Shown here one piece after another: positions 1,436 to 51,497 of a stretch of 64,000 nt of DNA. Origin of the DNA: a virus; the IMG/VR virus record IMGVR_UViG_3300029566_000004, one strand, 5' to 3'. The translations under genes were made by a program, and so were the position numbers. Position 1 is the stretch's first letter, and each line of letters opens with the position of its first letter. The notes beneath the pieces are model-generated. The model was given only the letters and a program-made list of their open reading frames with translations. It was not told the DNA's origin and ran no database searches.

Positions 1436-1739
1436 CGATGGTTTCCTCCTCTGCTGTTATAATTGGATTTGTGATAGGATCGTAGTTATCACTTATATCA
1501 ACATGACACATATTTTTTAATTTACGACGACCTTCACGATTATTTACTCCATGATTAATCACTTTTAAGAATGCTTTTGCGAGTGACTCATTTTCTTCAC
1601 GAGCCTCTTTTAACATATTTTCTACATCGACGAGATAATCTGTTAAAATTCCTACATTCTTATTATATTCTGCGTCTTTTGGCGCATATAAAGTAACCGC
1701 CATCAGAGCATCAATTACTTCTTGTTGTTTATGTTTCAT
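1380..1739 (-). CDS. hypothetical acidic protein
   Basis: 119-aa ORF packed tightly between the primase and RecJ-like genes. TGA stop. Confidence 0.5.
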   Translation of the reverse strand: MKHKQQEVIDALMAVTLYAPKDAEYNKNVGILTDYLVDVENMLKEAREENESLAKAFLKVINHGVNNREGRRKLKNMCHVDISDNYDPITNPIITAEEETIDESTISVDTTKESEAESD

Positions 1740-2839
1740 AATATTATTCTCTCCTTAAATAATTGCATAAATTTTTCTGGGCCTTCATCGGTTGGGCTCG
1801 CTTTATATGAAGTAATTAAATGTTTATCAAAAATAAAGGATATTAATACTTCATTTTTATATTTTTTATGTAAACCTAAAAGTTTTGCTTTTAAACGTTT
1901 AAATTCACTATCACCTAACTCTTGGAATTGTCGGTCAAAAGCAATAATAATTTCTTGCACTCTATCTTCAATCAATAACTGTATTTGATATGATGATACA
2001 CTGCTACCACAGCATGCAACCGATATATCATTTTCCAAACCAAAATAACTTTGAAATTGTAGAGTGGATTTTTCACTTTCAAAAACAATAGCTTTACCCA
2101 TACGCTTTATATTGTCTTTTGAATTATTAAGGTTATATAAATTTAATCCAAGAGAATGATTATATTGTTGTTTATTAATAATCATTGGACGATATTTACC
2201 AAATCGTTCTGCATCTTCTTTGACCATCGTTCGTCCGCGCAGGCCTATAAATCGACCATCTTTATCAAAATGAGGAATACTAATTTGATCAGTAGAAAAA
2301 TTATATCCTATTTGCGCATGCGCTAATATCTATGGTTTAATATGATCATTAATCCAAGGCGTTAAATAATTCGGATTAATTGCCAATGGTCCCAATATGC
2401 GTTTATCATATTCTTTTAATTGCGGTACTTGATTTACTGTTGGAATATCATTAATCTTATCATATGCAATTAAATATTGCCAATCTGTTAAACCAAGATC
2501 TTCTGTATCACCTAAATCAATAACTATATTAAATTTAGCAGCAAGATAACGCACCGCATCATTTAAATCCATTTTGCGATTAGATTGAATTTGAGCAACT
2601 TTAATTGTTAATTCAAATATATCAAAAGCGCAATCACAATCAGTATAACATTTAAATAAATCACTATTTTCGTAAAAATAGAGTTTTCTACTTCCTTCTC
2701 CAGGCGGATTATGACAGATGGTATCAGAGATAAAACCAAAAGGGGTGAACTCTGGATTGCCACCCCATTCAGTTACTAATTGAAAGTAGTCATCAATGGA
2801 TAACTCTTCTCGAATTGCCTTCTTATCATAATCTTGCAT
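1736..2839 (-). CDS. dnaG: DNA primase (zinc-finger + TOPRIM), one in-frame TAG at 2330-2332
   Basis: ORFs 2330..2839 (CHNP..C..C zinc-finger region) and 1736..2227 (TOPRIM-like ..AIVFESEKS..IIAFDRQ..) share one frame. They are joined through ..HIKP-TAG-ILAHAQIGYNFSTDQISIPHFDKDGRFIGLRGRTM.. Confidence 0.8.
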
Positions 2840-2841
2840 AC

Positions 2842-3117
2842 TTAACCTTCAATGATGACTTTGCAACACCAGCCGAGAAGACCAAATTCTTTTGTGACAA
2901 CTTCACATAAAAATTCCATAGGTTTCATATTTGCTGGTTTTTGTTTGATATAAAATTTTGCCATATCTTTTGGCATCTTATATTCATAAGGATGACCATT
3001 TGCGTATGTGGGCATTGAAATTGAATCATCAACCCTGGGTGTTAATTTCTTTTTTGTAAATTTCTTTTGTGACGTACTCTTAGACTTTCGAGTAATAATA
3101 TTTTCACTAAAATTCAT
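2842..3117 (-). CDS. hypothetical protein
   Basis: 91-aa ORF in operon-like packing. TAA stop. Confidence 0.5.
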   Translation of the reverse strand: MNFSENIITRKSKSTSQKKFTKKKLTPRVDDSISMPTYANGHPYEYKMPKDMAKFYIKQKPANMKPMEFLCEVVTKEFGLLGWCCKVIIEG

Positions 3118-3126
3118 ATATCCTCC

Positions 3127-5696
3127 TTAAAAAGCACTTGGCTCTTCTGTAAATATTTTTAAATCTTCTATCGATTGAATTGCATAATCATATGAAGTGC
3201 AAAACATTGGCTTAATACGACAACAGCCCAAATCTGCTTTACACCACAGATATATTCCTTTCCATCGTCCACGCCTATTTTTATATACTGATAATTTTAA
3301 ATTCGGTGTATCAAACGTATTAGAGCTTAAAATTGTCTGTAATGCTTCTAAATCTTCTGATTTAACTGGAAGATAAATACCACCCCAGTCAACTTTATCT
3401 GCAATAGCTTTTGCACCACGCAATAAGTTTTGGTCAGGAGTTGTAGCTTGTTGATAATCCATATTTAACTGCGTTGCAGACATTATAAAGATTCCATACT
3501 TATTACATATATCTTTAAGCCGAATGGAAAGCATGTATAAGATATTATCTTCTCGAAGTTTAATTCCGCCACTTCGACGAGTGATTTCTTCCAATATTTT
3601 AAGGGAAGTATGAATATAGTCGTGACACGTTATTCTCATATTTCTATGAGCGCTGACTATCTCTTACTACATAAAAATTTTTATGTAGGACACCTTTTCG
3701 GCATTTAACTGGCTTCGTTTCCTAAAACCAGACTACGTATCAATAGTAGCCCTACTCCCCCGTCCAGAAGACCTGGGGGATAGTCGATACAGCTTCTTTT
3801 TTTAGACGTTATTCCAAGTTCTATTTTTTATTATATCAGCGACTGTTGATCTAGAACATTTATATTCTTCTGCTAATTTACTATAAGATATTTTTTCATT
3901 TTGATATCTTTTTCTAATTTCATTAGCTATTTCCTAATTCATTTTTGTATGTCTTCCTTTTTCAATATAGTCTGGCATAATATTTTTATATCTTCTTCCA
4001 GACCAAATATTTAAAAATGAATTATAATGTAGTCGTTCTGAATATTTTTCTTTATAAATTTTACTTGGACTTTCTCCATTTTTATAAGCAATACGTAATT
4101 CTTTTATCTCGCTTGGGGTTAACTCTGCTTGCCCCCAAGTTAATTTTTCTTTCTATTCCAATGTTTTTGGCTTAGAAGCGTTTTTTCCTCCAATTTCAAT
4201 ATTATATCCATTTGGAATTAATGTATTATACTAAATAATATAATATTTTTCTAATTGATTTAATATATCTATATCGGGAATATCTTTAACTAATATTTCA
4301 TAAGTAAAATTTTCAAATCCATATTTTCTAAACGCTCTATGCAATGGTGAATTATATTCACTACTGTTTTCATTTTTATATGAACTTTTATGATTATTAT
4401 ATCTTTCATTTTTTGGACTAATTGATTGTCCTATATATTGCTTATTATTAATTTGATTTATAAATCGGTAAATAATTCCCATAAAATCAACTCCTTTCAA
4501 TATCGTATGAAAATAGTCAATTATATTTTAATTACTCCCGTCCAAAAAAAGTTTGCCACGGGATTCCCATGCATTACTGTTTAGGGTTCCCCGTTAGCCA
4601 CAATTGTGACCCCGCTGATTAGCGGAAAAGTGTTTCACTGTCCCGTCACCCTTTCAATAGGGTCGAACACGTATTTAATGTCATGATCACGGATATTTTT
4701 CTTAATTTTATCCTCAACGTCTTGTAGGGAGAAGTCAGGCAACTGTTCAATATATAGCGGGGCACTCGCAAGTACTGTGGCGGCTTCGCGGACTCTATCC
4801 TCTTCATCACCTTGATATTTTCCATTAATAATATGCTCCTCATTTACATTTGCTAAAAACGCAAGCATCATTGTTTGCAATTCTTCTATATCTTGCTCTG
4901 TACTTATATACAAAGTCGGTTCACAAGTTCCATTTTTAATCCATCCAAAAATTTCATCATAAATTTTATTACAAGAAATGAAACAAGCATCTGCAATCAT
5001 ACTACGAGATTTACCAACGCCAGTAGGAGCTGAACGCAGATAAAATTTCTTTAATCGTGCGCCTCTTGTAACTGTGTTGATAAGTGGACCATATAATGGT
5101 ACTCCAACTTCTGGATATGCTTTCAAGCGGTCAATTAATTCTAATGCCCCTTCTCCAGCTTGTGTTGCTTCGCCAAATTCATTATCTACATATTCAGCGC
5201 GAATAGACTCAATTTTCCCATCAACCTTGTTTGCAATATCTTCTAAGGTTGAATTATCTAACCATTCTTCTTGCATTTGTTTGCGTTTAGTATCTAAAAT
5301 ATTATCTGGGTCATAGATATCTGATACATCAATACCATATTTATCATATGCTCGCAATAATGACATTTTCTTCATTCTGCTATAATAATAATCAAATGCA
5401 TCAGGGATTGCCGCTTCAGATACTTTAGCTAACCATTCATTTCCCTTATTGTTTTTAAATACTGCTTCTGCCTTGGGGCGACTACTAAAAAAGTCAGCAA
5501 TATTTTCTAATGTAATTTTTTGTGCACCCAATTCATAAATTTTATATATAGCACCAAAGGTAACACGATGAAATTCATCAGGAAAATCTTCATCTGTGAT
5601 AGTATATTTATCTGTGAAGTCCAATAGACTAGGATTATTATAAACGCATCCAATAACTTGCATTATACTTGGAACATCAACATACTTACTTGCCAT
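3127..5696 (-). CDS. dnaB: DnaB-like replicative helicase, split by a group I intron (exon 1 4666..5696, exon 2 3127..3625)
   Basis: Exon 1 has an N-terminal DnaB-like domain and Walker A RSAPTGVGKS. Exon 2 continues ..HDYIHTS..SATQLN..GAKAIADK... The proposed junction gives ..DIKYVF|HDYIH (Walker B region), with the 5' exon ending in U and the intron ending in G. ATG 5696 has an AGGAG RBS. Confidence 0.8.
3626..4665 (-). mobile_element. group I intron (T4 td-like core) in the helicase gene, carrying a GIY-YIG ORF
   Basis: Contains GCTAACGGGGAACC...GGAATCCCGTGGCAAAC and CGACTATCCCC...GGGGGAGTAGGGCTAC. As I recall the T4 td intron core, it has closely similar elements (CTAAACGGGGAACC / CAATCCCGTGCTAAA / CGACTATTCC..GAAGTAGGG). 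The same blocks recur in the intron at 8787-9381. Confidence 0.7.
3802..4482 (-). CDS. GIY-YIG homing endonuclease (intron-encoded), three in-frame TAGs
   Basis: MGIIYRFINQINNKQYIGQS.. GIY-YIG motif with an AGGAG RBS. The frame stays open to TAA 3802 only if the TAGs at 4231, ~4150 and ~3934 are read. The C-terminal ..TVADIIKNRTW.. looks like a helix-turn-helix. Confidence 0.75.
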
Positions 5697-7326: not shown

Positions 7327-8280
7327 TTAGAACTTAAAGTCACCAGTTGCAGGAACAGTGGTTGTCTTAATCGCATTAGCTTGATTGGCTCTCCATTCAG
7401 CCGTACGCTGTTTCTTTGCTGCAAGTTCCATTTCTCTATCACTCATTGCCTTTTTGAGTTCATTTACAGTAATAGTATCTTCACTATCCCATTCATAAGC
7501 TTCGGCACGCGCGCCAGTGATAACCCAGTCCTTACGACTGTGACTAATTTCACGAATAGAAGGCTCGCCAAATGCAGATTCCTCTGTAATTGTGCGAGTT
7601 ACTGTGGCAGATACTTGATTACCCCAAATATTAGTAAATACGGGTTCTTTAGAGCTAGCGCCTAAACTAAGGAAATAATTAATTGCATTAGGATTGGTTG
7701 CAATAAAATCTACAGGGAGCAGAACATTACGGAAATCAAAAATACAACCCTTAACAATAAGACCATCAGGAATATTTTTATCGGGGTCGCCTTCGCGCTC
7801 AGTAGTTCCTGTGATAATCATATCAACTTTGAAAGTATTACGACGCTTCTCATCAGCATCAAGATTATTATCAGTAATAATATGGATAAAGCCACCTTCA
7901 TTACGCTTTGTACTTACCAAAGTTTCCTCATCTTTAGTAGTAGTATCATACCATTCATTTAAACCGATTGCAGAATCAATACGAATACGTGCAGCTTCAT
8001 TCCAATCAGAATCCATAACAGTTTTAATCTTACCGTTAAGAATATCCATAAGAATAGGATAATTTGGGTTTTTCTTAGTCTTATTGGGATAAGTGGGTGC
8101 AACATAGGTAAAATGAACAGATACAATATTAGTATGATTATTATCAGTAGCAATATCAATAGTGCCAGTTACATATGGGGTGCCAGGGTTTTTAGATTCT
8201 TTACTAGATTCCTTAGCCTCAAGTTTATGTGCATATAAAATTCCTTCAATATGTGTCTAATTAATCATATTTTTCTTCAT
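7327..8280 (-). CDS. putative ssDNA-binding protein, one in-frame TAG (8257-8259)
   Basis: ATG 8280 has an AGGAG RBS (MKKNMIN-TAG-THIEG..) and runs in frame into ORF 7327..8049. It sits after the ATPase and ends ..GDFKF. The SSB assignment is tentative. Confidence 0.5.
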
Positions 8281-8355: not shown

Positions 8356-9772
8356 TTACTTAGATATTTCATCTCCAAAAAGCAGAACATCCGCATAAGG
8401 TAACTGTCGTGCAAACTTCATAAAATCTTTCGACCATTCAGTTAATTTATGGTATCTACGCTGAGTTGGCAAACACATTTCATAAAGATTTTCATAATTC
8501 ATAGTGACTGTACGAGTTTGCAAAAAACTTTCTGGCAACCAACGAATCAATTCTTTCCAATATTTCTTATCTTTTGTTTCAAGATATTTTTGACGTAATG
8601 ATTCACAAATATTAATTATAGTTTTTGCTGCTGATTCATTTAATCCAGTTTCAATTTCATGCATTACATCAGAATGATAGTCATCAATTTCAAAACAATC
8701 TAATGTAATTGGTTTACTTGTAAGTTTATGCATAGTAGAAGTCGAGTTAGCAGTAGTACCTACTTTATAAGTATCAAATTCTTTCCCATTTATGGACTAT
8801 CTTTTACTCTCTAATGAGAGGATACCATTTCGGCATTTAATTAGCTTCGTTTCCTAAAACTAAACTACGTATCAATAGTAGCCCTACTTCCCTGCCCAGA
8901 AGGCCTTGGGAATAGTCTCTACAGGTTCATTTCAAACACACATTTTAAATATAAAACTTTACTCTACGTCTAAACTATAGCCTTCAATCTCGGCTTTAAT
9001 TTCAAGCTGGTACAAATATTGCCCCATAGCACTTGCTTGTGACTTCCACTGCTCCATAGGGCAATTTGGTTCAAAATCAAGCTTACCAGCTTCTCTCTTT
9101 ATAATCATTGAATGGAGTTTATTATACTTGTCCTTAACAAAATAATACTCTCCAATCGCCCTACTCTTATAATCATCAGATTTTAGTAATTCAATAATCC
9201 TATCAAACGTCATAGTAATTGCCTCCTTAAAATAACAAATCCTTAGTTTACAAGTTATATGTGTGTGTTTGAAATGTTTCCCACGGGATTCCAATGGGGG
9301 GTTCCCCGTTAGCTATATTTTACAAAAAATATAACCCTCGCTGATAGACGAGAAAAGTATTTCATTGGCAGAAAGAATTCTACCAGTAGAGTGGAGCAGT
9401 AATATCAACAGATACTATAATTTGTCGCATAAATTTACGATGCTCTGGACCAGCCATAATAAGCTTATGAGCAAGATTTAAATCATCAGGACACAAAGCA
9501 GCATATTCTACATAACTACCATCAGTATGAATAATAGAACGCTGTGTAATATCTTTTACAGTCTTGGCATATAAAGTATCATAATCGGGATCGAGCATAT
9601 TTAAATGAGCTGCTTCCAACCATTTTGTCGCTAGACTCTATACAGTCGCACCGAATACAATAATAGGCTTAGTTCCAAATTCGCTTAAAGATTTATTCCA
9701 GCTATTATGAGGATTTCGCATTCCTCGAAATGCCCCCTCAAAATTAAACACTCTTATATTTTCAAATTTCAT
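8356..9772 (-). CDS. thyX: ThyX-like (FAD-dependent thymidylate synthase family) protein, split by a group I intron (exon 1 9382..9772, exon 2 8356..8786), one in-frame TAG at 9638-9640
   Basis: N-terminus MKFENIRVFNFEGAFRGMRNPHNSW... The junction ..ITAPLYW|WKEFDTYKVGTTANSTSTMHKL restores a motif I recall from ThyX-like phage proteins. The 5' exon ends in U and the intron ends in G. Confidence 0.6.
8787..9381 (-). mobile_element. group I intron (same td-like family as 3626-4665) in the ThyX-like gene
   Basis: Shares GAAAYACTTTTC..ATCAGCGRGG..GCTAACGGGGAACCC..GGAATCCCGTGGSAAAC at the 5' side with the helicase intron. It also shares ..GGGAAGTAGGGCTACTATTGATACGTAGTTTAG.. at the 3' side. Confidence 0.7.
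8959..9213 (-). CDS. intron-encoded small protein with no recognisable endonuclease motif
   Basis: MTFDRIIELLKSDDYKSRAIGEYYFVKDKYNKLHSMIIK... with an AGGAGG RBS. I see no GIY-YIG, HNH or LAGLIDADG motif. Confidence 0.5.
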   Translation of the reverse strand: MTFDRIIELLKSDDYKSRAIGEYYFVKDKYNKLHSMIIKREAGKLDFEPNCPMEQWKSQASAMGQYLYQLEIKAEIEGYSLDVE

Positions 9773-33661: not shown

Positions 33662-33729
33662 AAAATTATTTAATGAAGGGAGAGGATTTAATCCTCTCTC
33701 TTTAATTAATTTAAAGGAGATAAAGGTGT

Positions 33730-34884: not shown

Positions 34885-34935
34885 AAATGATGGATGCGGG
34901 CGAGGATCGTTAAAATAAAAAAGGAGGATGATTGA

Positions 34936-36930: not shown

Positions 36931-36941
36931 GGTGATTAATT

Positions 36942-37823: not shown

Positions 37824-37861
37824 ATTTAATAATAAAAATAAGAAAGGAAAGGAAGAATAAT

Positions 37862-43505: not shown

Positions 43506-43582
43506 TGGTGCTGGTGGGTGGACTCGAACCACCGACATTCACCTTATCAGAGTGACGCTCTAACCAACTGAACTACACCAGC
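43506..43582 (-). tRNA. tRNA-Ile(GAU)
   Basis: Acceptor GCTGGTG/CACCAGC, anticodon loop CUGAUAA, T arm GGTGG-TTCGAGT-CCACC, encoded CCA. Confidence 0.85.
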
Positions 43583-43586
43583 GAAT

Positions 43587-43663
43587 TGGCACTCCGGAGA
43601 GGACTTGAACCCCCAACACCTTGATCCGTAGTCAAGAGCTCTTTCCAATTGAGCTACCGGAGT
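43587..43663 (-). tRNA. tRNA-Arg(ACG)
   Basis: Acceptor ACTCCGG/CCGGAGT, loop CUACGGA, T-loop TTCAAGT, encoded CCA. Confidence 0.85.
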
Positions 43664-43801
43664 AAAAAAAATAAGGTGAAATAGCAGGCACAGGAAAAGT
43701 GGAAGTGAAAACCGTGTCAATAAACTATTTCACCTTAAAAATTACAAGACTCATTAAAAATAATATCCATATTTCTATAAAATTGCTGTTTGAGTCTTAA
43801 T

Positions 43802-43875
43802 TGGAGCACGATATGAGATTTGAACTCACAACTTCGGTTTGGAAGACCAATATGTTACCCTTACACTAATCGTGC
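43802..43875 (-). tRNA. tRNA-Gly(UCC)
   Basis: Acceptor GCACGAT/ATCGTGC, loop CUUCCAA, encoded CCA. Confidence 0.8.
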
Positions 43876-43878
43876 ATA

Positions 43879-43952
43879 TGGTGCGGGGCTGCGGATTTGA
43901 ACCGCTTTTTCAGCTTTTTAAAGCTGAGGGTATACCTTTAGCCTAACCCCGC
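43879..43952 (-). tRNA. atypical tRNA-like gene with an 8-nt anticodon loop UUUAAAAA
   Basis: Acceptor GCGGGGT/GCCCCGC, A73, CCA. Perfect 5-bp stem TCAGC/GCTGA encloses 8 nt. The D stem is weak and the variable loop short. Confidence 0.5.
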
Positions 43953-44073
43953 AATATAAAACAAAACGTATTTTTCTTCACTCACTCAAAATAATTCATT
44001 TATTGCTACATACGTTTTTATATGGTGCGGATGGAGGGATTCGAACCCTCAAGGATTTCTCCCGACGGATTTT

Positions 44074-44808
44074 CTTACTACTCTATGTTACCATAGCCGC
44101 ATTATTGCGTTGTAGTCTGGATCATGTCTTCTCCATATCTTTCGACTTAGGAGGCTGGTGTATGATCTCTACACATTTACAATCTAAATGATTGATTTAG
44201 CTCGGCGTTATCCCAGTAGGACTTTCGCCGAATTAGCCAGCATTCACTCAGAAGATTTCTCACTCTGGTGCTCTATTTGCAGAAATAGTATTTTTTCTTC
44301 TACGCCAATTTGGAGTATAAGAATGACAGTTTGGACATAATAATTGAAGATTTTCTAAACGATTGTCTGTCCTATCTCCATTAATATGATGGATTTCAAG
44401 AGTAATTGGTTGTCCTAACCACTCTGTTAATCCACAGCATTCACATTTACGTCCTCTCAATTTAATTAAAGGATTTAATGTTGTGCTGCCATTCTTTTTA
44501 ATTGAATTTACTGTAAATAATGTGTAATCATAATTCTCATGATTCCATGCTTGTCCTAAAAAATGTGAGGTATCAAGTTGAAGTTCTTGACACATTTTAT
44601 TTAATGAAGTTAATGCTCCGCCACTGTCTCTTGCATATCCAAGGGCTATTGCAACTTCACGCATAGACTACGCATTTTTTACAATTTCTTCAATTTGTTC
44701 TTTTGAAAAAGATTTCCATTTTGGTTCTCTTGCCATAATATAGACCTCCTTTTTTCTTGTCTATTTATTATGGCAGAGGCGATAGATATTTTAATCTACT
44801 CTGCCCAA
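44074..44808 (-). mobile_element. group I intron in tRNA-Leu(UAA) carrying an HNH endonuclease ORF
   Basis: The 5' exon ends in U and the intron ends ..GTAAG. A candidate internal guide GAGU pairs with exon ACUU. About 257 nt are non-coding, including ..TCCAGACTA.. / ..TAGAGTAG... Confidence 0.7.
44260..44735 (-). CDS. HNH homing endonuclease (intron-encoded), one in-frame TAG
   Basis: MAREPKWKSFSKEQIEEIVKNA-TAG-SMREVAIALGY.. and C-terminal ..CECCG..HHINGDRTDNRLENLQLLCPNCH... Confidence 0.75.
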
Positions 44809-44876
44809 AAGTCCGTTGTGTATGCCATTCCACCACATCCGCACAGTAAGTTTTCATTTCTTTTTCTTACATATAT

Positions 44877-44905
44877 ATTTTATCAAATTTTTTTATAAAA
44901 ATCAA
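44877..44905 (-). promoter_or_regulatory. promoter cassette (-35 TTGATT, -10 TAAAAT) upstream of tRNA-Leu(UAA)
   Basis: Same repeat family. Confidence 0.6.
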
Positions 44906-45037
44906 AAAGATAAAATCAAACTAGACGCTATAATAATTCACAAAGGATTCTAACCACCAATTAGAAAAAATTAAAAATATTAACATAATTGCTGTAAGCG
45001 TCTTATCTGGTTTTTATTTTCCCTTTTCCGATTAATA

Positions 45038-45126
45038 TGGCTGGGGTGGAGGGATTCGAACCCCCATCTTTCGCCTCAGAAGCCCGGCATTTAGAGTGCC
45101 GTGTGTTGCCATTACACCACACCCCA
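45038..45126 (-). tRNA. amber suppressor tRNA, anticodon CUA (reads UAG)
   Basis: TGGGGTG-TG-GTGT-AATGGCA-ACAC-A-CGGCA-CUCUAAA-TGCCG-[19 nt]-GGGGG-TTCGAAT-CCCTC-CACCCCA-G-CCA. All stems are Watson-Crick apart from one G-U pair in the T stem. Confidence 0.85.
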
Positions 45127-45271
45127 GCGTATTATTTAAGGAAAAAGATAAAACATTTGTCAAAAATTATTCGTTAAGTTATCAAGACCTCTAGTATAAT
45201 ATTTTATCAGAATATCACTTATAATAATTGCGGAAAAGGTCTTTCTTTATTTATATTATATTATAAATTTT

Positions 45272-45799
45272 TTATTTTTTCAATTCTTCAATAATTAAAT
45301 CTTTTGGCAAAAATTTTTTACATAAATAACAAGAGCCAAAAGACACACCATCTTGCGTTTTTGACATTGAAGGATCTTTATAATAATTAATTCTCTTATC
45401 AAAACCAAGGTATTGTATATTTTTCAAATAAGGGAATCGAGCTTGTCCCTGCAAAGTAGGAACAGGTAATAACATTGCATAAGGTTTCCCTAATTCGTCA
45501 AGTCTCTTTAAGACATTGTCTTTCTGAGAAAAAGGAGGATTAGAAATAATTATGTCATAATGTTCTTTTGGTTCCCAAAAGAAAAAATTTTTCCCTTCGT
45601 CTATGTGAGAATGTATTACTTTAAAGCCATTCTTTACAAATACCTAAACATACTTAGATGTCTCCAAGTCAAAAGGACACCAAATAGTTTCATTCCCTTG
45701 TAAGTATTTAATAAGAGGAATTACTGCATATTCAGGTGTAAATACTTCATCACTTGCTTTGTCAGTTTTAGCCTACAAATAACCGACATTAAGAGGCAT
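45272..45799 (-). CDS. DNA (amino) methyltransferase-like protein, two in-frame TAGs
   Basis: MPLNVGYL-TAG-AKTD..VFTPEYAV..SKYV-TAG-VFVKNG..DIIISNPPFS.. (NPPF motif IV). ATG 45799. Confidence 0.6.
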
Positions 45800-45878
45800 T
45801 GTATTTCCTCCTTTTATTTTATTTCTGGATAATTAGTAAAAACAGTTACACCACGAGAAGGTTTATCCAAAGTAACCG

Positions 45879-45950
45879 AGCCCGTGGACGGAGTCGAACC
45901 GCCAGCCCTTTCTTTACAAGAGAAACGCTCTACCATTGAGCCACACGGGC
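45879..45950 (-). tRNA. tRNA-Thr(UGU)
   Basis: Acceptor GCCCGTG/CACGGGC, loop CUUGUAA, T-loop TTCGACT, no encoded CCA. Confidence 0.85.
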
Positions 45951-45964
45951 AAATTCAAGACGAT

Positions 45965-46033
45965 TGAAATTTATAGGAATCGAACCTACTCAAACAAGGA
46001 TACAGCCTGTTTTTAAACCATATATAAAATTGC
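45965..46033 (-). pseudogene. degenerate AT-rich tRNA-like sequence (loop CUGUAUC, GUA)
   Basis: GTAGG-TTCGATT-CCTAT T arm, anticodon stem ACAGG/CTTGT, weak acceptor and D stems. Confidence 0.3.
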
Positions 46034-46063
46034 AGAAATCGTCTTTCTTTTTCTTACATATAT

Positions 46064-46092
46064 ATTATATCAAAAATTTTTATATTTTTCAA
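46064..46092 (-). promoter_or_regulatory. promoter cassette (-35 TTGAAA, -10 TATAAT)
   Basis: Same repeat family, inside the tRNA array. Confidence 0.6.
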
Positions 46093-46524
46093 ATAAAAAA
46101 TATCTGACATAGGACTTGAGCGCATCTACTCCACAAACACTAACTACTGTTGTCTTGTGCCACCCACCCATACATACATACGTAATGTATTATTACAACA
46201 AAACGCATACAATCCATCGACTTGCTGTATTCCTATGTCAGAATATTTTCCCTTGCCTCTACTGCCATCCAGAAGAGTTGGAGCGTCTAGTTCGCAAGTA
46301 AAACACAACTAATAACAATTAATAAATAAATAAATAAAACCTACAATCTCTTCTCTTATAGGACGACCGATTTATAGTTATCGGCCTAACTCGAGTAGTA
46401 TGTCTTTACGACCAAAGAACCACGCCGCGGACGTAGTCCACTTTTTAAATGATGGACACTTTTAATCCTACATCCTACTCAACAATAGACTTACATATGG
46501 ATTTTGCCATAAAGCTATTGGTAC

Positions 46525-46598
46525 TGGCAGGGGTGCAGGGACTTGGACCCCAATCTGCGCCTTTGGAGAGCGTTATGCTGCCGTTACACCACACCCCT
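46525..46598 (-). tRNA. tRNA-Trp(CCA)
   Basis: Acceptor AGGGGTG/CACCCCT, G73, CCA, loop CUCCAAA. Confidence 0.8.
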
Positions 46599-46601
46599 AT
46601 A

Positions 46602-46692
46602 TGGCAGAGGGAGAGGGATTTGAACCCTCGGAACAATAAACTTGTTCGGTAATTTAGCAAACTACTGCACTCAGCCACTATGCGATCCCTCT
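46602..46692 (-). tRNA. tRNA-Ser(GCU)
   Basis: Acceptor AGAGGGA/TCCCTCT, G73, loop UUGCUAA, long variable arm (GAACAA/TTGTTC), CCA. Confidence 0.85.
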
Positions 46693-46698
46693 ATAAAA

Positions 46699-46775
46699 TG
46701 GTAAGTCTGATGGGAGTTGAACCCATAATAAAACGGTTTTGAACCGTTCGCGTCTGCCTATTGCGCCACAGACTC
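46699..46775 (-). tRNA. tRNA with Leu anticodon CAA and Leu-type D arm but only a 5-nt variable loop
   Basis: GAGTCTG-TG-GCG-CAATAGGCAGA-CGC-G-AACGG-UUCAAAA-CCGTT-TTATT-ATGGG-TTCAACT-CCCAT-CAGACTT-A-CCA. Confidence 0.65.
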
Positions 46776-46781
46776 ATAAAA

Positions 46782-46868
46782 TGGTGCGTGTAATAGGACT
46801 CGAACCTATAAAGTGTTGCCACCATAGCGCCCTCAACACTACGCGTTTACCAGTTTCGCCACACACGC
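46782..46868 (-). tRNA. tRNA-Leu(GAG)
   Basis: Acceptor GCGTGTG/TACACGC, A73, loop UUGAGGG, 15-nt variable arm, CCA. Confidence 0.8.
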
Positions 46869-47015
46869 ATAAAATAGTCGGGATTGTATTACCATATAGC
46901 GCTATTAAGTAATAGAACTGGGCCATCTAACCCGACGGAGTGCCCCAAACCCTTGCTCATGCATTAGCTTAACAGATCGCTGTATGTTTATTATTGCGGA
47001 GGGAACAGCAACCCT

Positions 47016-47089
47016 TGGTGGAGACGCTAGGAGTTGAACCTAGTTTTCATCGGCGGTACCATTTTCGAGCTCTTTCCGAAGTCATCCCC
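47016..47089 (-). pseudogene. tRNA-like sequence with good acceptor/T arm and CCA but no foldable anticodon arm
   Basis: GGGGATG...CTAGG-TTCAACT-CCTAG-CGTCTCC-A-CCA. I could not form a 5-bp anticodon stem in the central 39 nt. Confidence 0.35.
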
Positions 47090-47092
47090 ATA

Positions 47093-47167
47093 TGGTGGGC
47101 CAGGGTGGGATTGAACCACCGACGAACGAATTCTTAGTCCGCCACTCTACCTCTGAGTTAGCAGCCC
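47093..47167 (-). tRNA. tRNA with anticodon AAG (Leu codon family), class I shape
   Basis: GGGCTGC-TA-ACTC-AGAGGTA-GAGT-G-GCGGA-CUAAGAA-TTCGT-TCGTC-GGTGG-TTCAATC-CCACC-CTGGCCC-A-CCA. Two G-U pairs in the anticodon stem and one acceptor mismatch. Confidence 0.55.
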
Positions 47168-47170
47168 AAA

Positions 47171-47246
47171 TGGAGCTTGCAATGCGACTTGAACGCATGA
47201 CCTCACCCGTACCAAGGGTGTGCTCTACCAACTGAGCTATACAAGC
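47171..47246 (-). tRNA. tRNA-Thr(GGU)
   Basis: Acceptor GCTTGTA/TGCAAGC, loop UUGGUAC, CCA. Confidence 0.85.
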
Positions 47247-47267
47247 ATATTAAAATCAACCTTAAAG

Positions 47268-47352
47268 TGGTGCGAGCGAAGAGACTCGAACTCATACACC
47301 CTGCGGCACCGGAACCTAAATCCGGCGCGTCTGCCAATTCCGCCACGCCCGC
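47268..47352 (-). tRNA. tRNA-Leu(UAG)
   Basis: Acceptor GCGGGCG/CGCTCGC, A73, D arm GCG-GAATTGGCAGA-CGC, loop UUUAGGU, 13-nt variable arm, CCA. Confidence 0.8.
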
Positions 47353-47418
47353 TGATGCCCTCTGCAACGCAATGTCTCGTTTAAATTGATAAATGAAACA
47401 AAAACCAAATGCAAAGAT

Positions 47419-47494
47419 TGGTAACCCGTCGGAGATTCGAACTCCGGACACCTTGATTAAAAGTCAAGTGCTCTACCGACTGAGCTAACGGGTC
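47419..47494 (-). tRNA. tRNA-Lys(UUU)
   Basis: Acceptor GACCCGT/ACGGGTT, loop CUUUUAA, CCA. Confidence 0.85.
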
Positions 47495-47499
47495 AAATC

Positions 47500-47649
47500 T
47501 GGCTGAGGTGGCAGGATTTGAACCTGCGAATGCGGGAGTCTGGCAGGCGGCTAAGGATTTGAACCTTAATCTTTAGTTTTGGAGGCTATTATGTTACCGT
47601 TACACCAACCACCTAAAGTCCCGTGCCTTAACCTCTTGGCTACACCTCA
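47500..47649 (-). tRNA. tRNA-Gln(UUG)-type gene split in the anticodon by a nested tRNA (5' half 47615..47649, 3' half 47500..47540)
   Basis: The halves join to TGAGGTG-TA-GCCA-AGAGGTTAA-GGCA-CGGGA-CUUU|GAC-TCCCG-CATTC-GCAGG-TTCAAAT-CCTGC-CACCTCA-G-CCA (76 nt). All stems are Watson-Crick. It is close to E. coli tRNA-Gln as I recall it. Confidence 0.75.
47541..47614 (-). tRNA. tRNA-Trp(CCA)-like gene nested inside the Gln-type tRNA
   Basis: AGGTGGT-TG-GTGT-AACGGTA-ACAT-A-ATAGC-CUCCAAA-ACTAA-AGAT-TAAGG-TTCAAAT-CCTTA-GCCGCCT-G-CCA. It is a paralog of 46525-46598. Its anticodon stem has only 3 of 5 pairs. Confidence 0.65.
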
Positions 47650-47679
47650 ATTTTATAATCCCAAGTGTTTTGATGAAAA

Positions 47680-47756
47680 TGGTCGGGGTGGAGGGATTCG
47701 AACCCCCGACTTTCTGCTCCCAAAGCAGACGGACTACCAAACTGTCCTACACCCCG
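47680..47756 (-). tRNA. tRNA-Pro(UGG)
   Basis: Acceptor CGGGGTG/CACCCCG, A73, loop UUUGGGA, CCA. Confidence 0.85.
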
Positions 47757-47759
47757 AAA

Positions 47760-47836
47760 TGGCGGTACCAAGGGGATTTGAACCCCTGTCTCCGGCGTGA
47801 CAGGCCGGCATTCTAGGCCAACTGAACTATGGAACC
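47760..47836 (-). tRNA. tRNA-Asp(GUC)
   Basis: Acceptor GGTTCCA/TGGTACC (one mismatch), G73, loop CUGUCAC, CCA. Confidence 0.8.
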
Positions 47837-48163
47837 ATAAAGAAAGGAGAATAGAGAGAAGAAAGAAGAAAAATGTGATGAAAAATTAAAGAAATCACAT
47901 TTCCAGAGCTAAAAGACTCTCTCTATGAGGATAGTCTTTTCTTTCTGCGGCAAGCAATATATTCAGGATTTTAACCTGCAGCCCAAAGTTCAATAGTATG
48001 TTTATTAAGCACTCAATAAACAAAATACAAGAAGGATCCAAAATAATTAACTTTGGGATTTCCGTCGCAGGCCTTTATAAAAGCTTGTCAGGGAAAATTA
48101 TCTTAATGACAATAATTTTATTTTTTATTAATTATAAGCTATTCACTCATTTTTTACAATATA

Positions 48164-48192
48164 ATTATATCATAAATTTTTTGAAAAATCAA
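48164..48192 (-). promoter_or_regulatory. promoter cassette (-35 TTGATT, -10 TATAAT)
   Basis: Same repeat family. The -35 abuts the tRNA-Cys 3' end. Confidence 0.6.
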
Positions 48193-48272
48193 TGGAGCAT
48201 TCGGTTGGATTCGAACCAACGACATATACGGAGGTTGCAGCTCCGCCTCTTAAGCCACTTGAGTACGAATGC
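48193..48272 (-). tRNA. tRNA-Cys(GCA)
   Basis: Acceptor GCATTCG/CGAATGC, U73, loop CUGCAAC, 8-nt variable loop, CCA. Confidence 0.75.
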
Positions 48273-48347
48273 ATAAAAGGCAAAAGACGCATAGGGTCTA
48301 CCTTGGTCTTTCGAAACTTTTTCTACACATGGTAGATAAGCAAAACT

Positions 48348-48407
48348 AGACACTTGGATTTTTTCAGAATGTAGCGAAAAAAATTCTAAAATTTGCTGTG
48401 CGTGTCT
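48348..48407 (-). ncRNA. stem-loop element sharing the AGACAC..ACAGCAAAT...A-run-GTGTCT ends with the element at 52118-52234
   Basis: AGACAC (48402-48407 on the RNA strand) pairs with GTGTCT (48348-48353). An internal AGAAT/ATTCT hairpin is present. The 5' segment is nearly identical to that of 52118-52234. Confidence 0.35.
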
Positions 48408-48506
48408 AAATTTGGTGGGAATGCCTTACGAGATATATATTGCAATACGGTTTAACTTTTGCATGCCGTAGCACGTGATACTGACATATAAGTTTCTCTC
48501 GCTCCT

Positions 48507-48581
48507 TGGTACCTCGAGGTGGATTTGAACCACCGACTTCCGGAATATGAGTCCGTCGTTCTACCGCTGAACTATCGAGGC
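48507..48581 (-). tRNA. tRNA-Met/Ile2(CAU)
   Basis: Acceptor GCCTCGA/TCGAGGT, loop CUCAUAU, CCA. Confidence 0.75.
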
Positions 48582-48747
48582 ATATATAACTAAGTTTTGC
48601 TTTCGTTGTCTTTTTATTTTTGTGTGCTGCTAAATGACAATGCCACATATGGATTATATCCCCGGTGGTAGTTGAAACTTAGAAAATCCATCCTTTCCGC
48701 ACACTTTGGCGCTCCCGGTAGGACTTGAACCTACGACGCGGTGGTTG

Positions 48748-49215
48748 CTTACACATCAGCTTACCAATTCTTTACTACTTCCTCCAATTCATAATTTTTC
48801 GCCCAAGTAATACCTCTTACTTGACCATTTTTTGTAGGAAGAATACGAAGTCTTTTATCTGCTCCGCACTCCTCAACTGGAACTAAATAACATTTTCCAT
48901 TAAAAGTAGTTACGAAGTAATCAATTTCCTCGTTTGAGTATGTATGATGCACAATCTTACCATCTTTTCTATTACAACTTCTACAAGAAAATTTGAATGA
49001 TGCACCATCATCTTCGGTATTTGATGTTTTAGCTTGAACTCGAATAAACTTTCCATTAACATCTACTACAAAGTCATATCTCTCACAATCTCCATATGGA
49101 GTTAAAACATTATAACCAAGTTTTAGAAATGCTAACATTGTTTCAAGTTCTGTAATATTTCCTTTTTGTTTACTATTCATTTATCTTTTCATAAAGAATA
49201 GATAAGGTCAGGTAA
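48748..49215 (-). mobile_element. 468-nt insertion in the tRNA anticodon loop, almost entirely a PD-(D/E)XK endonuclease ORF
   Basis: Only about 35 nt lie upstream and 13 nt downstream of the ORF within the insertion. With the terminal-G rule the loop becomes CUGU|CAA (Asp). An Asn loop CUGUU|AA would need an intron ending in C. Confidence 0.55.
48761..49180 (-). CDS. PD-(D/E)XK endonuclease of the I-Ssp6803I-like (tRNA-intron) type
   Basis: MNSKQKGNITELETMLAFLKLGYNVLTPYGDCERYDFVVDVNGKFIRVQAKTS.. fits the ..KG...E......L..G..VL.P.GD..-YD.V.D..G...RVQ(V/A)K pattern. Confidence 0.6.
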   Translation of the reverse strand: MNSKQKGNITELETMLAFLKLGYNVLTPYGDCERYDFVVDVNGKFIRVQAKTSNTEDDGASFKFSCRSCNRKDGKIVHHTYSNEEIDYFVTTFNGKCYLVPVEECGADKRLRILPTKNGQVRGITWAKNYELEEVVKNW

Positions 49216-49256
49216 ACAGCCACCTGCTCTGCCAGCTGAGCTACAGGAGCATATAT

Positions 49257-49333
49257 TGGCGGTACCAAGGGGATTTGAACCCCTGTCTTCGGCGTGACGG
49301 ACCGACATTCTAGGCCAACTGAACTATGGAACC
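49257..49333 (-). tRNA. tRNA-Asp(GUC), second copy with C33
   Basis: Same acceptor and T arm as 47760-47836. Loop CCGUCAC, i.e. C instead of U at position 33. Confidence 0.7.
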
Positions 49334-49491
49334 ATTCGTGATTACGCCGCAAGTTCGCGTCACTTGCTTTTACGGAGGGCGTAGGCTCCGCCTCAAATCT
49401 GGTGCTTATGAGGATATCACCCGGACGCCGTAGCGCCACTTTAAAGTTGCCTTAATTTAACGAGCTGGTCGAGCTCTTAAAAACTAGTCCC

Positions 49492-49563
49492 ATTTTAAGA
49501 TTGGAGTCGAACCAATGACCTTCAGTTTTGCAGACTGATGCTCTACCTCTGAGCTACTCTCCC
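49492..49563 (-). pseudogene. tRNA-Cys(GCA)-like with a non-pairing acceptor 3' strand
   Basis: GGGAGAG-TA-GCTCAGAGGTAGAGC-A-TCAGT-CUGCAAA-ACTGA-AGGTC-ATTGG-TTCGACT-CCAAT is followed by CTTAAAA instead of CTCTCCC. Confidence 0.45.
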
Positions 49564-49600
49564 AATATGCGGAAGCAAGATTGCTGTATAGGACTATAAA

Positions 49601-49676
49601 TGGTAGCGTCATGGGGATTCGAACCCCAGTTGCTGGATTGAAAGCCCAGTCTCCTAACCAATTAGAGGATGGCGCC
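49601..49676 (-). tRNA. tRNA-Glu(UUC)
   Basis: Acceptor GGCGCCA/TGACGCT (one mismatch), Glu-type D arm, loop CUUUCAA, CCA. Confidence 0.75.
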
Positions 49677-49682
49677 AAGTTA

Positions 49683-49949
49683 TTAATTCATTGGGAGAAG
49701 AACTTTCCATGCGCCATTAGGCTGCATTTCCATTCGCCACCAAGAATCATTTTTAAGCAGATATACTGCAGTATCAGTATATTTATCAATAAATGCCTGC
49801 CGCAAATTTTCTGCTGCATCGAGGTCTTTTACAGGCCCCAGAAATTTCCCTTGAACAGGAGGAATATCCTCATACATGTTTTTAAATGTCTTTTCTACAT
49901 AAACGGTATCAATAGGATAATGTTTGCGACATACAACATAAAATTTCAT
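49683..49949 (-). CDS. hypothetical protein inside the tRNA array
   Basis: MKFYVVCRKHYPIDTVYVEK.. AGGAG RBS. Confidence 0.5.
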   Translation of the reverse strand: MKFYVVCRKHYPIDTVYVEKTFKNMYEDIPPVQGKFLGPVKDLDAAENLRQAFIDKYTDTAVYLLKNDSWWRMEMQPNGAWKVLLPMN

Positions 49950-50153
49950 AGATATCTCTCCTTTGGATTTATTTAATGAAGGGTGGAATTCAAACCCTCG
50001 CGCTATTATATAGCTTCTTTTCTTTAACGACAACAAGTAAGCTAAATGTCGCTGGTCTTACATCATTTATTTAACGTCGCTGTTGGATGGCAGCAAACCT
50101 GCGACGAAAAGAATGCTTTGTTTTATGGTATAGAACCATAATATTGGTTTAGT

Positions 50154-50224
50154 TGCTCAAAATAGGATTTGAACCTATATCTAACGATATATAGAATCGC
50201 TGCTTTGCTATTAAGCTATTGAGC
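50154..50224 (-). tRNA. tRNA-Ile(UAU)
   Basis: Anticodon stem GCGAT/ATCGT, loop UCUAUAU, T arm ATAGG-TTCAAAT-CCTAT, no encoded CCA. The acceptor/D junction is slightly irregular. Confidence 0.55.
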
Positions 50225-50636
50225 ATCATGACCTTCGCCTCTAAAACCTTTTACGGCAAACTCAGCAAAGGATAAAGTTTTTCAAAGAGCCGCCAAACTC
50301 TTCTATTCTCAGCGCTCATCATTTAGACAATCAAGTATTGGCGCACTATCCAGTCATCTTAGAGCAAGTTTTTCACCGCTTCGTATTTGTTCACCTTGGA
50401 ACGCCTGCCAGCATTTTATGCCAGCAGCCTGCCGGGGGTCGAACCCGCTATACGAGCAGCTTCATTTTTGAGAATAAGGTTATATGTAATTACTAGCAAA
50501 CCTTTGGAAACCAGCTTAGCATGAGTTTATTGACATCTCTAAGGGTGGTCATTGGTCGCAACCAAAATTTTTAGTTCCGTCGTTAGTTTAAACAGAGCAT
50601 ACCATCGTGAAGGTGTACGGTAACATTTTATGCTCC

Positions 50637-50709
50637 TTGCGGGGGTGGGACTCGAACCCACAACCTTCAGATTATGAGACTGACAAGCTACCTATTGCTA
50701 TACCCCGCG
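50637..50709 (-). tRNA. initiator-like tRNA-Met(CAU)
   Basis: Acceptor CGCGGGG/CCCCGCA has the C1xA72 mismatch typical of bacterial tRNA-fMet. Loop CUCAUAA. It lacks the three G-C pairs in the anticodon stem and has no CCA. Confidence 0.65.
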
Positions 50710-50781
50710 ACGTAAAGGCAGTTTAAAGAGACGTGCCTAGGTCTCACAAGAAAGGAAAGATACATAACGGTTTCGCACCGC

Positions 50782-50858
50782 TGGTGGCACCCGCCGGGCA
50801 CGATCCGACATTACCAGCTTGAGAAGCTAGCGTCCTAGTTCAATTAGACGAGGAAGCC
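50782..50858 (-). tRNA. tRNA-Glu(CUC)
   Basis: Acceptor GGCTTCC/GGGTGCC (one mismatch), loop UUCUCAA, non-canonical T-loop ATCGTGC, CCA. Confidence 0.6.
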
Positions 50859-50867
50859 ATATTAAAA

Positions 50868-51497
50868 TTATTTAGAAAATTTCCAAATATATCCATAAGC
50901 AGTTTTTCGTTTTCCTTTACAAACATCTGAAATATGACTAATTCCGCCTCTAGATGTTGATTCTGGACAAACTGTTTTATAGGCTTCAGATAAAGAAGGA
51001 AAAGTTCTTAAATATTTACCATTTTTATCATATTGATTAATGATACATCCAAATTTTTCTTGATTAATTTTTTCTTGAGATTTTATCTCAATATTATACT
51101 TTTTCAAAATTTGACTTAAATAGTTTCTATCACAATGATATATTTGACTTATTTCTTCTAAGTTAGGATTTTCTTTATAAGCAAAAATTAAAACATCATA
51201 ATCTAAATAGCGTTTTCCATCGCCCCCTAAAGTGGCATTATATCCATTTTTAAAAGAACGATAATGTTCAATCCAGTACTTTTCTCTTTCTTCTGGATTA
51301 TTTGTTTCTTCTATCTGCTCGATATGAAAATGTTCAATTCCATATTTGCGCATCGCCGCATATAGCGGTCTTTTTTCATTTCTATCTCGAAAAGCATCTT
51401 GACAATGTTCTTTAAATCTTTTTTCAATAGAAAATTCTGTTTTGCCAATATAAATTTTCTAATTTATATCATTAACAATTTTATAAATGTATGCCAT
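50868..51497 (-). CDS. free-standing GIY-YIG homing endonuclease, one in-frame TAG (51459-51461)
   Basis: MAYIYKIVNDIN-TAG-KIYIGKTEFSIEKRFKEH...YWI..Y....GYN...GG. AGGAG RBS. Confidence 0.75.

Follow-up and report, generated by a model that had tools for sequence, protein, structure and literature searches.

Does the DNA of IMG/VR virus record IMGVR_UViG_3300029566_000004 use the stop codon TAG to encode an amino acid, and if so, which tRNA reads it and how might that tRNA be charged? We analyzed a 64,000-nt stretch of this record (hereafter the window; G+C content, 35.5%), for which an initial annotation made from the sequence alone had proposed that TAG serves as a sense codon in genes of either strand, with glutamine as the best fit. 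The recoding itself is one more lineage of an established phenomenon, as TAG-to-Gln recoding, suppressor tRNAs, and a bias of TAG toward late genes have all been described (10.1101/2021.08.26.457843; PMC9523058; PMC7886860). The novel part is the suppressor tRNA, which carries an extra arm between its anticodon arm and its T arm. Very probably, the window belongs to a code-15 phage (TAG = Gln) with TAA and TGA as its sole terminators, its own tRNA(CUA), a late bias of TAG, and an extra arm bearing a Gln anticodon.

TAG is a sense codon in the window

We called genes using only TAA and TGA as stops and ranked the open reading frames (ORFs) by a codon model for which TAG-free ORFs had served as the training set. 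Among the 64 genes called, 20 contained in-frame TAGs (39 in total), and after removal of doubtful ones, about 35 sound in-frame TAGs remained, on both strands and in 18-20 real genes. Genes ended in TAA (45) or TGA (19), in agreement with the initial annotation, although this is partly so by construction of the call. That annotation had also proposed calling genes with and without TAG read-through; when TAG was read through, coverage by ORFs of at least 100 amino acids rose from 78% to 90%. Downstream of ORFs that end at TAG under the standard code, a median of 37 codons remained open, versus 10-15 for ORFs ended by TAA or TGA (Mann-Whitney p = 0.001).

Protein alignments extended beyond every TAG that could be checked against relatives. 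As had been proposed, domain or family matches crossed TAGs, and did so in six genes (Pfam, PHROGs, and phage protein alignments). These include Pfam matches to GIY-YIG (residues 1-94) and GT2 (residues 9-109) and PHROG matches of the primase (phrog_47, 41-366), the methyltransferase (phrog_799, 12-160), and the ThyX-like protein (phrog_6721, 2-266). The primase aligned as single pieces, at 98% coverage, with its counterparts in standard-code Firmicutes phages (Enterococcus, Clostridioides, Staphylococcus). Of 69 aligned TAG codons, 67 were kept in four IMG/VR contigs (129-139 kb) that share 95-97% identity with the window, and five contigs spanning the left end of the window kept every TAG except that of the primase. 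In distant relatives, internal stops in well-aligned context were TAG in 266 cases, TGA in 24, and TAA in 3. TAG is a sense codon here, an observation far above chance. The window has TAG inside conserved genes and not as a terminator, a match to Gln, a phage tRNA(CUA), and enrichment of TAG in late genes, the features by which code 15 is recognized.

If the TAGs were true stops, the genes that contain them would be split genes, pseudogenes broken into fragments, or homing endonucleases undergoing decay. Decay is common among homing endonucleases, and one apparent in-frame TAG, at 9382, is indeed no codon. However, the frames that hold the 35 TAGs are uninterrupted by any TAA or TGA, independent contigs keep the same TAGs, single family matches cross them, and the phage encodes the cognate suppressor tRNA; we give this explanation virtually no chance. 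It is also highly improbable that the host itself reads TAG as sense and that the phage merely follows the host code. The phage brings its own tRNA(CUA), and TAG is strongly concentrated in late and mobile genes, with hardly any in replication genes. Moreover, the studied hosts of recoded phages use the standard code (bioRxiv 10.1101/2021.08.26.457843), and contigs related to the window were binned with ordinary Bacillota metagenome-assembled genomes (MAGs).

Glutamine is the best-supported assignment of TAG

Between the window and relatives 79-99% identical to it, TAG was exchanged for CAA at five sites, CAG at two, GAA at two, TGC at one, and CGT at one. Gln codons accounted for 7 of these 11 swaps, and AAA or AAG for none. 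CAA was the commonest swap even though it lies two base changes from TAG, which points to synonymous drift via CAG. In a reverse test, we examined the 73 window residues that lie opposite a TAG in relatives. Compared with composition, Q was enriched 4.8-fold at these positions, E 2.4-fold, and K 0.8-fold, and a BLOSUM-based likelihood gave 36.0 bits for Q, 28.5 for E, and 4.0 for K.

The residue tally at TAG sites that the initial annotation had proposed therefore came out in two ways: the reverse test favors Q, whereas the homologue columns at 16 TAG sites of the window fail to separate K (0.5 bits) from Q (-1.4 bits), with E at -23. Since these columns alone cannot split K from Q, the reverse test and the codon swaps were added; summed over both likelihood tests, Q is ahead of E and K by about 29 bits. 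Further residues at TAG sites speak for Glu. E is the commonest residue opposite the relatives' TAGs by raw count (18, versus 14 for Q) and lies only 7.5 bits below Q in the reverse test; two of the swaps, both among close relatives, are TAG to GAA or the reverse; and at the primase TAG site, where close relatives have TAG (three) or GAA (two), E or D is found in 33 of 38 relatives. A code in which TAG stands for Glu or Lys nevertheless seems quite unlikely, given the composition-corrected enrichment, the summed likelihoods, the codon swaps, and a tRNA whose acceptor is of the Gln type (U1-A72, G2-C71), neither Glu- nor Lys-type, and whose extra arm carries a Gln anticodon.

Homologues of the window's GT2 glycosyltransferase have Q at two of its four TAG sites in 90 of 118 (76%) and 84 of 119 (71%) cases; we did not count the homologues P0001 and P0002 as independent because their source had translated TAG as Q (the P0002 gene fails translation under table 11), and the other 118 were not checked singly. 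Published experiments point the same way. In E. coli extract, 28 of 29 phage tRNAs(CUA) inserted Gln (PMC12636597), and TAG was demonstrated to encode Gln in crAss-like phages by proteomics (PMC9523058). Codon swaps, likelihoods, the tRNA, and these experiments make Gln the best, well-supported reading of TAG, as initially assigned. One of the arguments first offered for it fell away, namely the likeness of VV-TAG-LRRD to the IQLRR fibre motif, as the nearest homologues carry S, L, or K there.

The phage encodes a suppressor tRNA with a second anticodon-like arm

The phage's own tRNA(CUA) was absent from the initial annotation, as were introns. Its gene (45038..45126, minus strand) is the sole tRNA(CUA) gene in an array of 25-28 tRNA genes (43506..51899, minus strand), in which HNH, methyltransferase, and GIY-YIG ORFs are interspersed. 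Scans of the window for tRNAs found no sense tRNA-Gln. The suppressor, detected by ARAGORN, is 89 nt long including an encoded CCA, has five arms, and scores 58.5 bits against the Rfam tRNA model, relative to which it has a 16-nt insertion in the variable region. The minimum free energy fold is a cloverleaf with an extra hairpin. Identical copies occur in the sequences labeled L130 and L143, and a blastn search against GenBank phages returned T-arm fragments only.

The anticodon arm proper (arm 1) presents CUA (45092..45094, minus strand) in the loop CUCUAAA, which reads UAG and does not vary in any of the 27 family members. The extra arm (arm 2; 45073..45083, minus strand) is a hairpin, GC-UUCUGAG-GC, located between the anticodon arm and the T arm and followed by the linker GAAAGAU. 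Its loop is that of a Gln anticodon: U33, CUG (45077-45079), and A37. The decoding arm has C34, U35, and A36 and so lacks G36; the full set of CUG and A37 lies on arm 2. The acceptor is Gln-type (U1-A72, G2-C71, G3-C70, G73), and with G10, the tRNA has the body features associated with glutaminyl-tRNA synthetase (GlnRS), i.e., a weak or unpaired 1:72, G2-C71, G10, and G73.

We rejected a class II tRNA (Ser, Leu, or Tyr) on the basis of the 4-bp D stem, the 7-nt D loop (GUGU-AAUGGCA-ACAC), and G73. Class II tRNAs (Ser, Leu, Tyr, Sec) resemble the suppressor in that a helix protrudes between their anticodon and T arms, and the ribosome accommodates it. In contrast to them, the suppressor has a type I D arm (4 bp, GUGUAAUGG), a 7-nt anticodon-like loop, and a 3' linker of 6-7 nt, and its conserved feature is the loop sequence, not the arm length. 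Pyrrolysine was also rejected, as the anticodon stem has 5 bp and the variable region 19 nt (tRNA-Pyl has a 6-bp stem and a 3-nt variable loop). No pyl genes (pylSBCD) were found among the annotated ORFs of the window, and the "Pyl" label given by ARAGORN mirrors the anticodon only.

The E. coli suppressors supE (tRNA-Gln with CUA) and su7 (tRNA-Trp with CUA, charged with Gln) likewise translate amber codons as Gln by means of U35, G10, G2-C71, and a weak 1:72. Unlike the window suppressor, both are ordinary tRNAs of 75-76 nt with one anticodon arm.

Two other tRNA genes of the array, both on the minus strand, deserve mention. In tRNA-Trp(CCA) (46525-46598), 23 of 25 bases of the 5' half match the suppressor, which suggests that the two tRNA bodies have a common origin. 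The tRNA at 43879-43952 has an 8-nt anticodon loop (UUUAAAAA), for which ARAGORN gives the four-base anticodon "taaa", together with a G-C-rich acceptor and A73 and no long variable arm. This tRNA, which has counterparts of the same kind at two other loci, may be Leu(UAA)-like or may serve as a quadruplet or frameshift decoder.

Arm 2 is conserved in amber suppressors and has a counterpart in opal suppressors

Contigs retrieved by protein homology contained 11 unique CUA tRNAs, six of which were 89-91 nt long and had the same extra arm. We then scanned IMG/VR for long CUA tRNAs with a pattern that left the content of the variable region unspecified. The scan yielded 31 unique long CUA tRNAs with a type I D arm, and all 31 had CUG or UUG atop the extra hairpin. 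An unanchored search for the best 7-nt loop returned YUCUGAR or YUUUGAR in most of the 31; about six were parsed differently. Long CUA tRNAs with class II bodies from the same scan had GAGYGG D loops and lacked a YUG loop.

In an alignment of 27 sequences, the U and G of the arm 2 triplet (U35' and G36') were invariant, and the C and A were at least 90% conserved. The arm 2 loop is therefore as conserved as universal tRNA positions, while the acceptor, anticodon, and T stems have turned over. The only frequent change in the loop was C to U or the reverse at the wobble position, which retains Gln. The arm 2 stem showed compensatory changes at all three of its pairs and was paired in 93.6% of cases; none of 500 shuffles reached the values observed for the whole structure, and RNAalifold recovered arm 2 independently. 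Elsewhere in the family, 1:72 was mispaired in 15 of 27 members, G2-C71 was present in 26 of 27, and G10 was invariant.

If the arm 2 triplet follows the reassigned amino acid, opal suppressors should carry CCA. We tested this expectation with a scan whose only anchors were the D loop, the UCA anticodon loop, and the T arm (an earlier pattern without a D-arm anchor had given mostly chance hits). A CCA arm was present in 26 of 26 unique long UCA tRNAs (92-99 nt), mostly with a stem of 4-6 bp, of which there were 20 distinct covarying versions, and with the loop [C/G]UCCAAA. The opal acceptors are Trp-type (A1-U72, G73). Because each half of the opal tRNAs matches ordinary phage tRNA-Trp genes, these tRNAs resemble a tRNA-Trp in which the anticodon arm has been duplicated. 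The linkers 5' and 3' of arm 2 measure 1-2 and 6-7 nt in the amber class and 4-6 and 3-4 nt in the opal class, and these different layouts suggest separate origins of the two classes. As judged from conservation and covariation, arm 2 appears to be selectively maintained, with a triplet that matches the reassigned amino acid in the amber as well as the opal class.

Several further kinds of tRNA emerged from these scans. Many recoded genomes have two CUA suppressors, often adjacent: a long one with two arms and a short one of 73-75 nt (L433, which is phage phAss-1, and L123, L132, L136, L162, L189, and L231); this suggests non-redundant roles of the long and short forms. The CUA tRNAs with class II bodies (L119, L142, L149, L156, L163, L170, L178, L179, L200, L203, L217, L222, and L233-L235) are candidate amber suppressors that would insert a residue other than Gln; that of L179 has a near-canonical tRNA-Ser body with the anticodon CUA. 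In L093, L107, L139, L180, L210, L367, and others, a class II-like D arm and a long variable arm are combined with the anticodons of type I tRNAs (Trp CCA, Thr UGU, Ile UAU, Met CAU, Asn GUU).

Arm 2 may contribute to charging of the suppressor

How suppressors with altered anticodons are charged by synthetases that depend on the anticodon has been stated to be an open question (10.1101/2021.08.26.457843). No synthetase or release-factor gene was found among the scanned ORFs of the 64-kb window, and the tRNA(CUA) is therefore presumably charged by the host. We propose that the suppressors arose by duplication of the anticodon arm in a tRNA-Gln or tRNA-Trp. Arm 1 would read the stop codon on the ribosome, and arm 2 would have been retained as the supplier of anticodon identity determinants (positions 34-36 and A37) for GlnRS or tryptophanyl-tRNA synthetase (TrpRS). 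In the amber class, the G36 that GlnRS needs and that is lost in CUA would come from arm 2. We put forward only tentatively, as a serious possibility short of an expectation, that arm 2 is a synthetase identity element. With similar reserve, many suppressors of recoded phages might be regarded as "two-anticodon" tRNAs, whose arm 2 would be read by, or would allosterically activate, the host GlnRS or TrpRS. Such tRNAs would solve the identity problem that a changed anticodon creates, by a tRNA architecture previously undescribed, and would suggest how efficient suppressor tRNAs might be engineered on a natural model. A conserved arm with the exact cognate sense anticodon in two independently built tRNA classes also makes the charging hypothesis directly testable.

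Several points weigh against this proposal. Class I synthetases such as GlnRS and TrpRS leave the variable-region side of the tRNA facing solvent, so arm 2 could not contact the anticodon-binding domain unless the tRNA rearranges or the two arms swap places. In the amber class, arm 2 is only 2-4 bp long. Among the CUA suppressors of related contigs, roughly half are of the short form, which has no such arm, and their coexistence with long ones implies that the arm is not essential for suppression. Many Bacillota have no GlnRS, and if the hosts lack it, CUG would serve poorly as a signal to a non-discriminating glutamyl-tRNA synthetase such as that of B. subtilis. In addition, the scan for synthetase and release-factor genes covers only 64 kb of a genome of about 135 kb.

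The short coexisting suppressors, the solvent-facing variable region, and the 2-4 bp stem also favor a different explanation, in which arm 2 is a relic of arm duplication or a plain long variable arm and charging proceeds through the acceptor stem, G10, and U35, as in supE and su7. Many amber suppressors that have no arm of this kind are charged by E. coli GlnRS (PMC12636597). A neutral relic, however, should lose its loop sequence, whereas U35' and G36' stayed invariant while other stems turned over, and the one frequent loop change, at the wobble position, still specifies Gln. Nor would a relic be expected to persist in the differently built opal class, which keeps a full CCA arm on its 20 covarying stems. 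We consider a relic or plain variable arm only slightly less probable than an identity element.

A two-armed suppressor apparently has not been described so far. In the open-access literature we found no description of a second or double anticodon arm, or of a long variable arm, in phage suppressors, although an earlier description is possible. Suppressor tRNA structure is not discussed in 10.1101/2021.08.26.457843, where the word "anticodon" is absent, or in PMC9523058, and the phAss-1 paper (PMC10607447), where "variable" is absent, does not mention the extra arm.

TAG is concentrated in virion and homing endonuclease genes

As a fraction of TAG, CAA, and CAG codons together, TAG amounts to 0.25 in the plus-strand virion block (29.9-38.6 kb), 0.19 in the five homing endonuclease ORFs, 0.03 in the replication and nucleotide metabolism block, and 0.03 in the remaining minus-strand genes. 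The genes for ligase, the GyrA-like and GyrB-like proteins, RNA ligase, sigma factor, helicase, and PhoH are TAG-free, in line with the initial observation that the largest enzymes contain no TAG. That annotation had also noted one TAG each in the primase, SSB-like, and ThyX-like genes, which we confirmed, and had implied from them a departure from the late-gene model. We do not share this conclusion. The TAG share of replication genes is only about 3%, against 25% in virion and 19% in endonuclease genes; the primase TAG is GAA in two of five close relatives; and in phAss-1, TAG has been reported in several DNA-processing genes (PMC10607447). The known late-gene bias holds, and the few early genes with TAG are leaky exceptions.

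According to the known timing or "code-switch" model, TAG-rich genes would be fully expressed only after the suppressor tRNA has built up. With TAG concentrated in virion genes and in endonuclease genes, whether intron-borne or free-standing, and rare in replication genes, full expression of the former would await accumulation of the suppressor. Translation of the endonucleases would likewise depend on the suppressor, and they would work only in recoded phages. Intron-borne homing endonucleases are here written in the private code of the phage; this would couple their production to the late stage, when the suppressor is abundant, and restrict them to genomes that are recoded. The intron endonucleases of phage T4 (I-TevI) similarly sit in introns of early or middle genes and are delayed relative to the host gene. 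I-TevI is confined to late expression; here, the delay would come instead from in-frame TAGs that depend on the suppressor.

Genes containing in-frame TAGs

The TAG counts of the initial annotation were reproduced for all genes but one, the LAGLIDADG ORF, which has four TAGs instead of five. At the left end of the window, on the minus strand, the gene for a YorJ-like DNA primase (1736..2839) has its TAG at 2332, within the phrog_47 match, and has full-length matches in standard-code phages. The single-stranded DNA-binding (SSB)-like protein (7327..8280, minus strand) is without a family match. Its TAG, at 8259 near the N-terminus, is kept in five of five close relatives, and alignments with distant relatives cross it. 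The ThyX-like gene (join(9772..9382, 8786..8356), minus strand) has a sense TAG at 9640, and the spliced protein matches phrog_6721 over its full length. Next to it, a small minus-strand ORF (9762..9995; coding score, 0.32 bits per codon) contains TAGs at 9929 and 9908, both kept in five of five close relatives.

All five homing endonuclease ORFs contain TAG, as initially stated. The endonuclease and GIY-YIG ORFs described next are all on the minus strand. A GIY-YIG endonuclease (3802..4500; TAGs at 4233, 4155, and 3936) matches Pfam GIY-YIG and helix-turn-helix domains. A coiled-coil protein with a GIY-YIG domain (10005..11045; TAGs at 10940, 10910, and 10790) has Pfam GIY-YIG at residues 257-338, and its TAGs are kept in five of five close relatives. 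A LAGLIDADG endonuclease ORF (20355..21296; TAGs at 21191, 20864, 20819, and 20450) matches LAGLIDADG_3, and an HNH endonuclease (44260..44736; TAG at 44670) matches HNH_3/HNH. At the TAG of a further GIY-YIG endonuclease (50868..51497; TAG at 51461), homologues have G, N, D, Q, or TAG. The DNA methyltransferase with an NPPF motif (45272..45799, minus strand; phrog_799) has TAGs at 45775 and 45646; in relatives, the first site is T and the second Q, E, or K.

The virion/tail-fibre-like block (29936..38635, plus strand) holds 16 TAGs conserved in close relatives, at 29969, 30110, 30211, 32486, 33005, 33898, 34009, 34246, 34327, 35638, 35668, 35740, 36754, 37698, 37979, and 38204. Four of them lie in a GT2-TPR glycosyltransferase gene (33730-34884, plus strand), and the counts of 2, 1, 2, 4, 1, and 2 given for the remaining genes were reproduced. 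The protein cluster to which GT2 belongs comprises 929 sequences from 73 contigs. Searches of the block against PHROGs and Pfam gave almost no matches, and the "fibre/lysin" labels of these genes stay weak. Beyond the range of the initial annotation, an unannotated ORF (54999..55805, minus strand) has a TAG at 55058, which the alignment passes in five relatives. Two TAGs, both at uncertain N-termini, are doubtful as sense codons: the one at 22433 precedes the point where PhoH probably starts, and that at 52157 is codon 4 of a weak ORF.

Introns and homing elements

The ThyX-like gene is interrupted by an insert of 595 nt (8787..9381, minus strand). The corresponding sequence is missing from the relatives L009 and L011, which have the uninterrupted reading APLYWWKEFDTYK. 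The 5' exon ends in CTGGT, and the insert starts with AGAATTC and ends with AAATG. With an exon-terminal U and an intron-terminal G, these junctions identify the insert as an intron with group I-like ends. We rejected the TAG at 9382-9380 as a codon, as it consists of the exon T and the AG of the intron and marks the intron boundary. L008 and L012 have a variant of this intron with a different middle section.

The 3' core of the ThyX-like intron (8819-8932) is 86% identical to a repeat at 3687-3800 in an element that splits the gene for a DnaB-like helicase (exons 4638-5711 and 3130-3639, minus strand) and that houses the GIY-YIG ORF at 3802-4500. Rfam gave no group I model in either element, and at gathering score its scan of the window returned no RNA family besides tRNA. 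The PIN-PhoH gene (exons 21576-22475 and 19896-20234, minus strand) contains a group I intron (about 20240-21580; RF00028 pieces at 21379-21563 and 20326-20358), which houses the LAGLIDADG ORF. This ORF is missing in the close relatives L001 and L002, which have about 150 nt in place of the ORF-bearing segment of about 1,060 nt.

Relatives of the phage

The window comes from a phage of about 130-140 kb found in gut or rumen samples, with a replication module like those of Firmicutes phages. It shares with known code-15 phages (crAss-like, Lak, Garnet/Topaz; 10.1101/2021.08.26.457843, PMC9523058) the in-frame TAGs in conserved genes, the phage tRNA(CUA), the placement of TAG in late or structural genes and its avoidance in early ones, the lack of a dedicated synthetase, and the gut or rumen origin. 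It differs in belonging to another lineage and in having homing endonuclease genes as rich in TAG as its virion genes.

The nearest described group is that of phAss-1, the proposed Phassvirus (NCBI "Caudoviricetes code 15 clade"; PMC10607447; OQ749652). In common with the window, phAss-1 has a genome of about 136 kb, a large tRNA set, TAG in virion and some DNA-processing genes, standard-code relatives similar to Enterococcus phage EF1, and predicted hosts in Clostridia or Bacillota. Its two-armed CUA tRNA (62445-62532; loop CUCUGAA) adjoins a short one (62539-62610; the pair, at L433 5914-6079, corresponds to OQ749652 62445-62610). Proteins of phAss-1 matched 12 of the 64 window proteins, at 25-40% amino acid identity, which is distant from the roughly 80% nucleotide identity among members of the genus Phassvirus. 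A Sak4-like protein is common to the window and EF1-type phages (49.7% identity), and a DNA search with window positions 11697-18138 against INPHARED gave no match. On these sequence comparisons, the window appears to represent a new distant member, at most, of a wider EF1/phAss-1-related group and is not a Phassvirus.

Six two-armed CUA suppressors (L442, L449, L460, L462, L471, and L489) were found on contigs in Bacillota MAGs (Erysipelotrichaceae, Bacilli, Eubacteriales), and in L471, arm 2 and its linker are the same as in the window. We take this binning as a weak pointer to the host lineage. The 24 in-frame TGAs in well-aligned context came from some of the relatives L008-L118. Opal suppressors occur within the same phage group (L112 and L373, which are the same contig as a Sak4/48764 relative), and related phages may use TGA-to-Trp recoding instead of, or besides, TAG-to-Gln.

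Other genes of the window

A divergent adenylosuccinate synthetase-like (PurA-like) protein is encoded at 40339-41553 (minus strand), next to a DUF2828/DUF7788 protein (38706-40232). PDB similarity gave no support to a PurZ reading of this gene (Z-genome, 2-aminoadenine): the matches were to ordinary PurA (E ~1e-14), with no PurZ entry among them. At 23362-26941 (minus strand), genes for a phosphoesterase, a polynucleotide kinase, a NinI-like phosphatase, and an RNA ligase form a cluster resembling a tRNA repair kit, and a phage sigma factor gene (27788-28627) follows.

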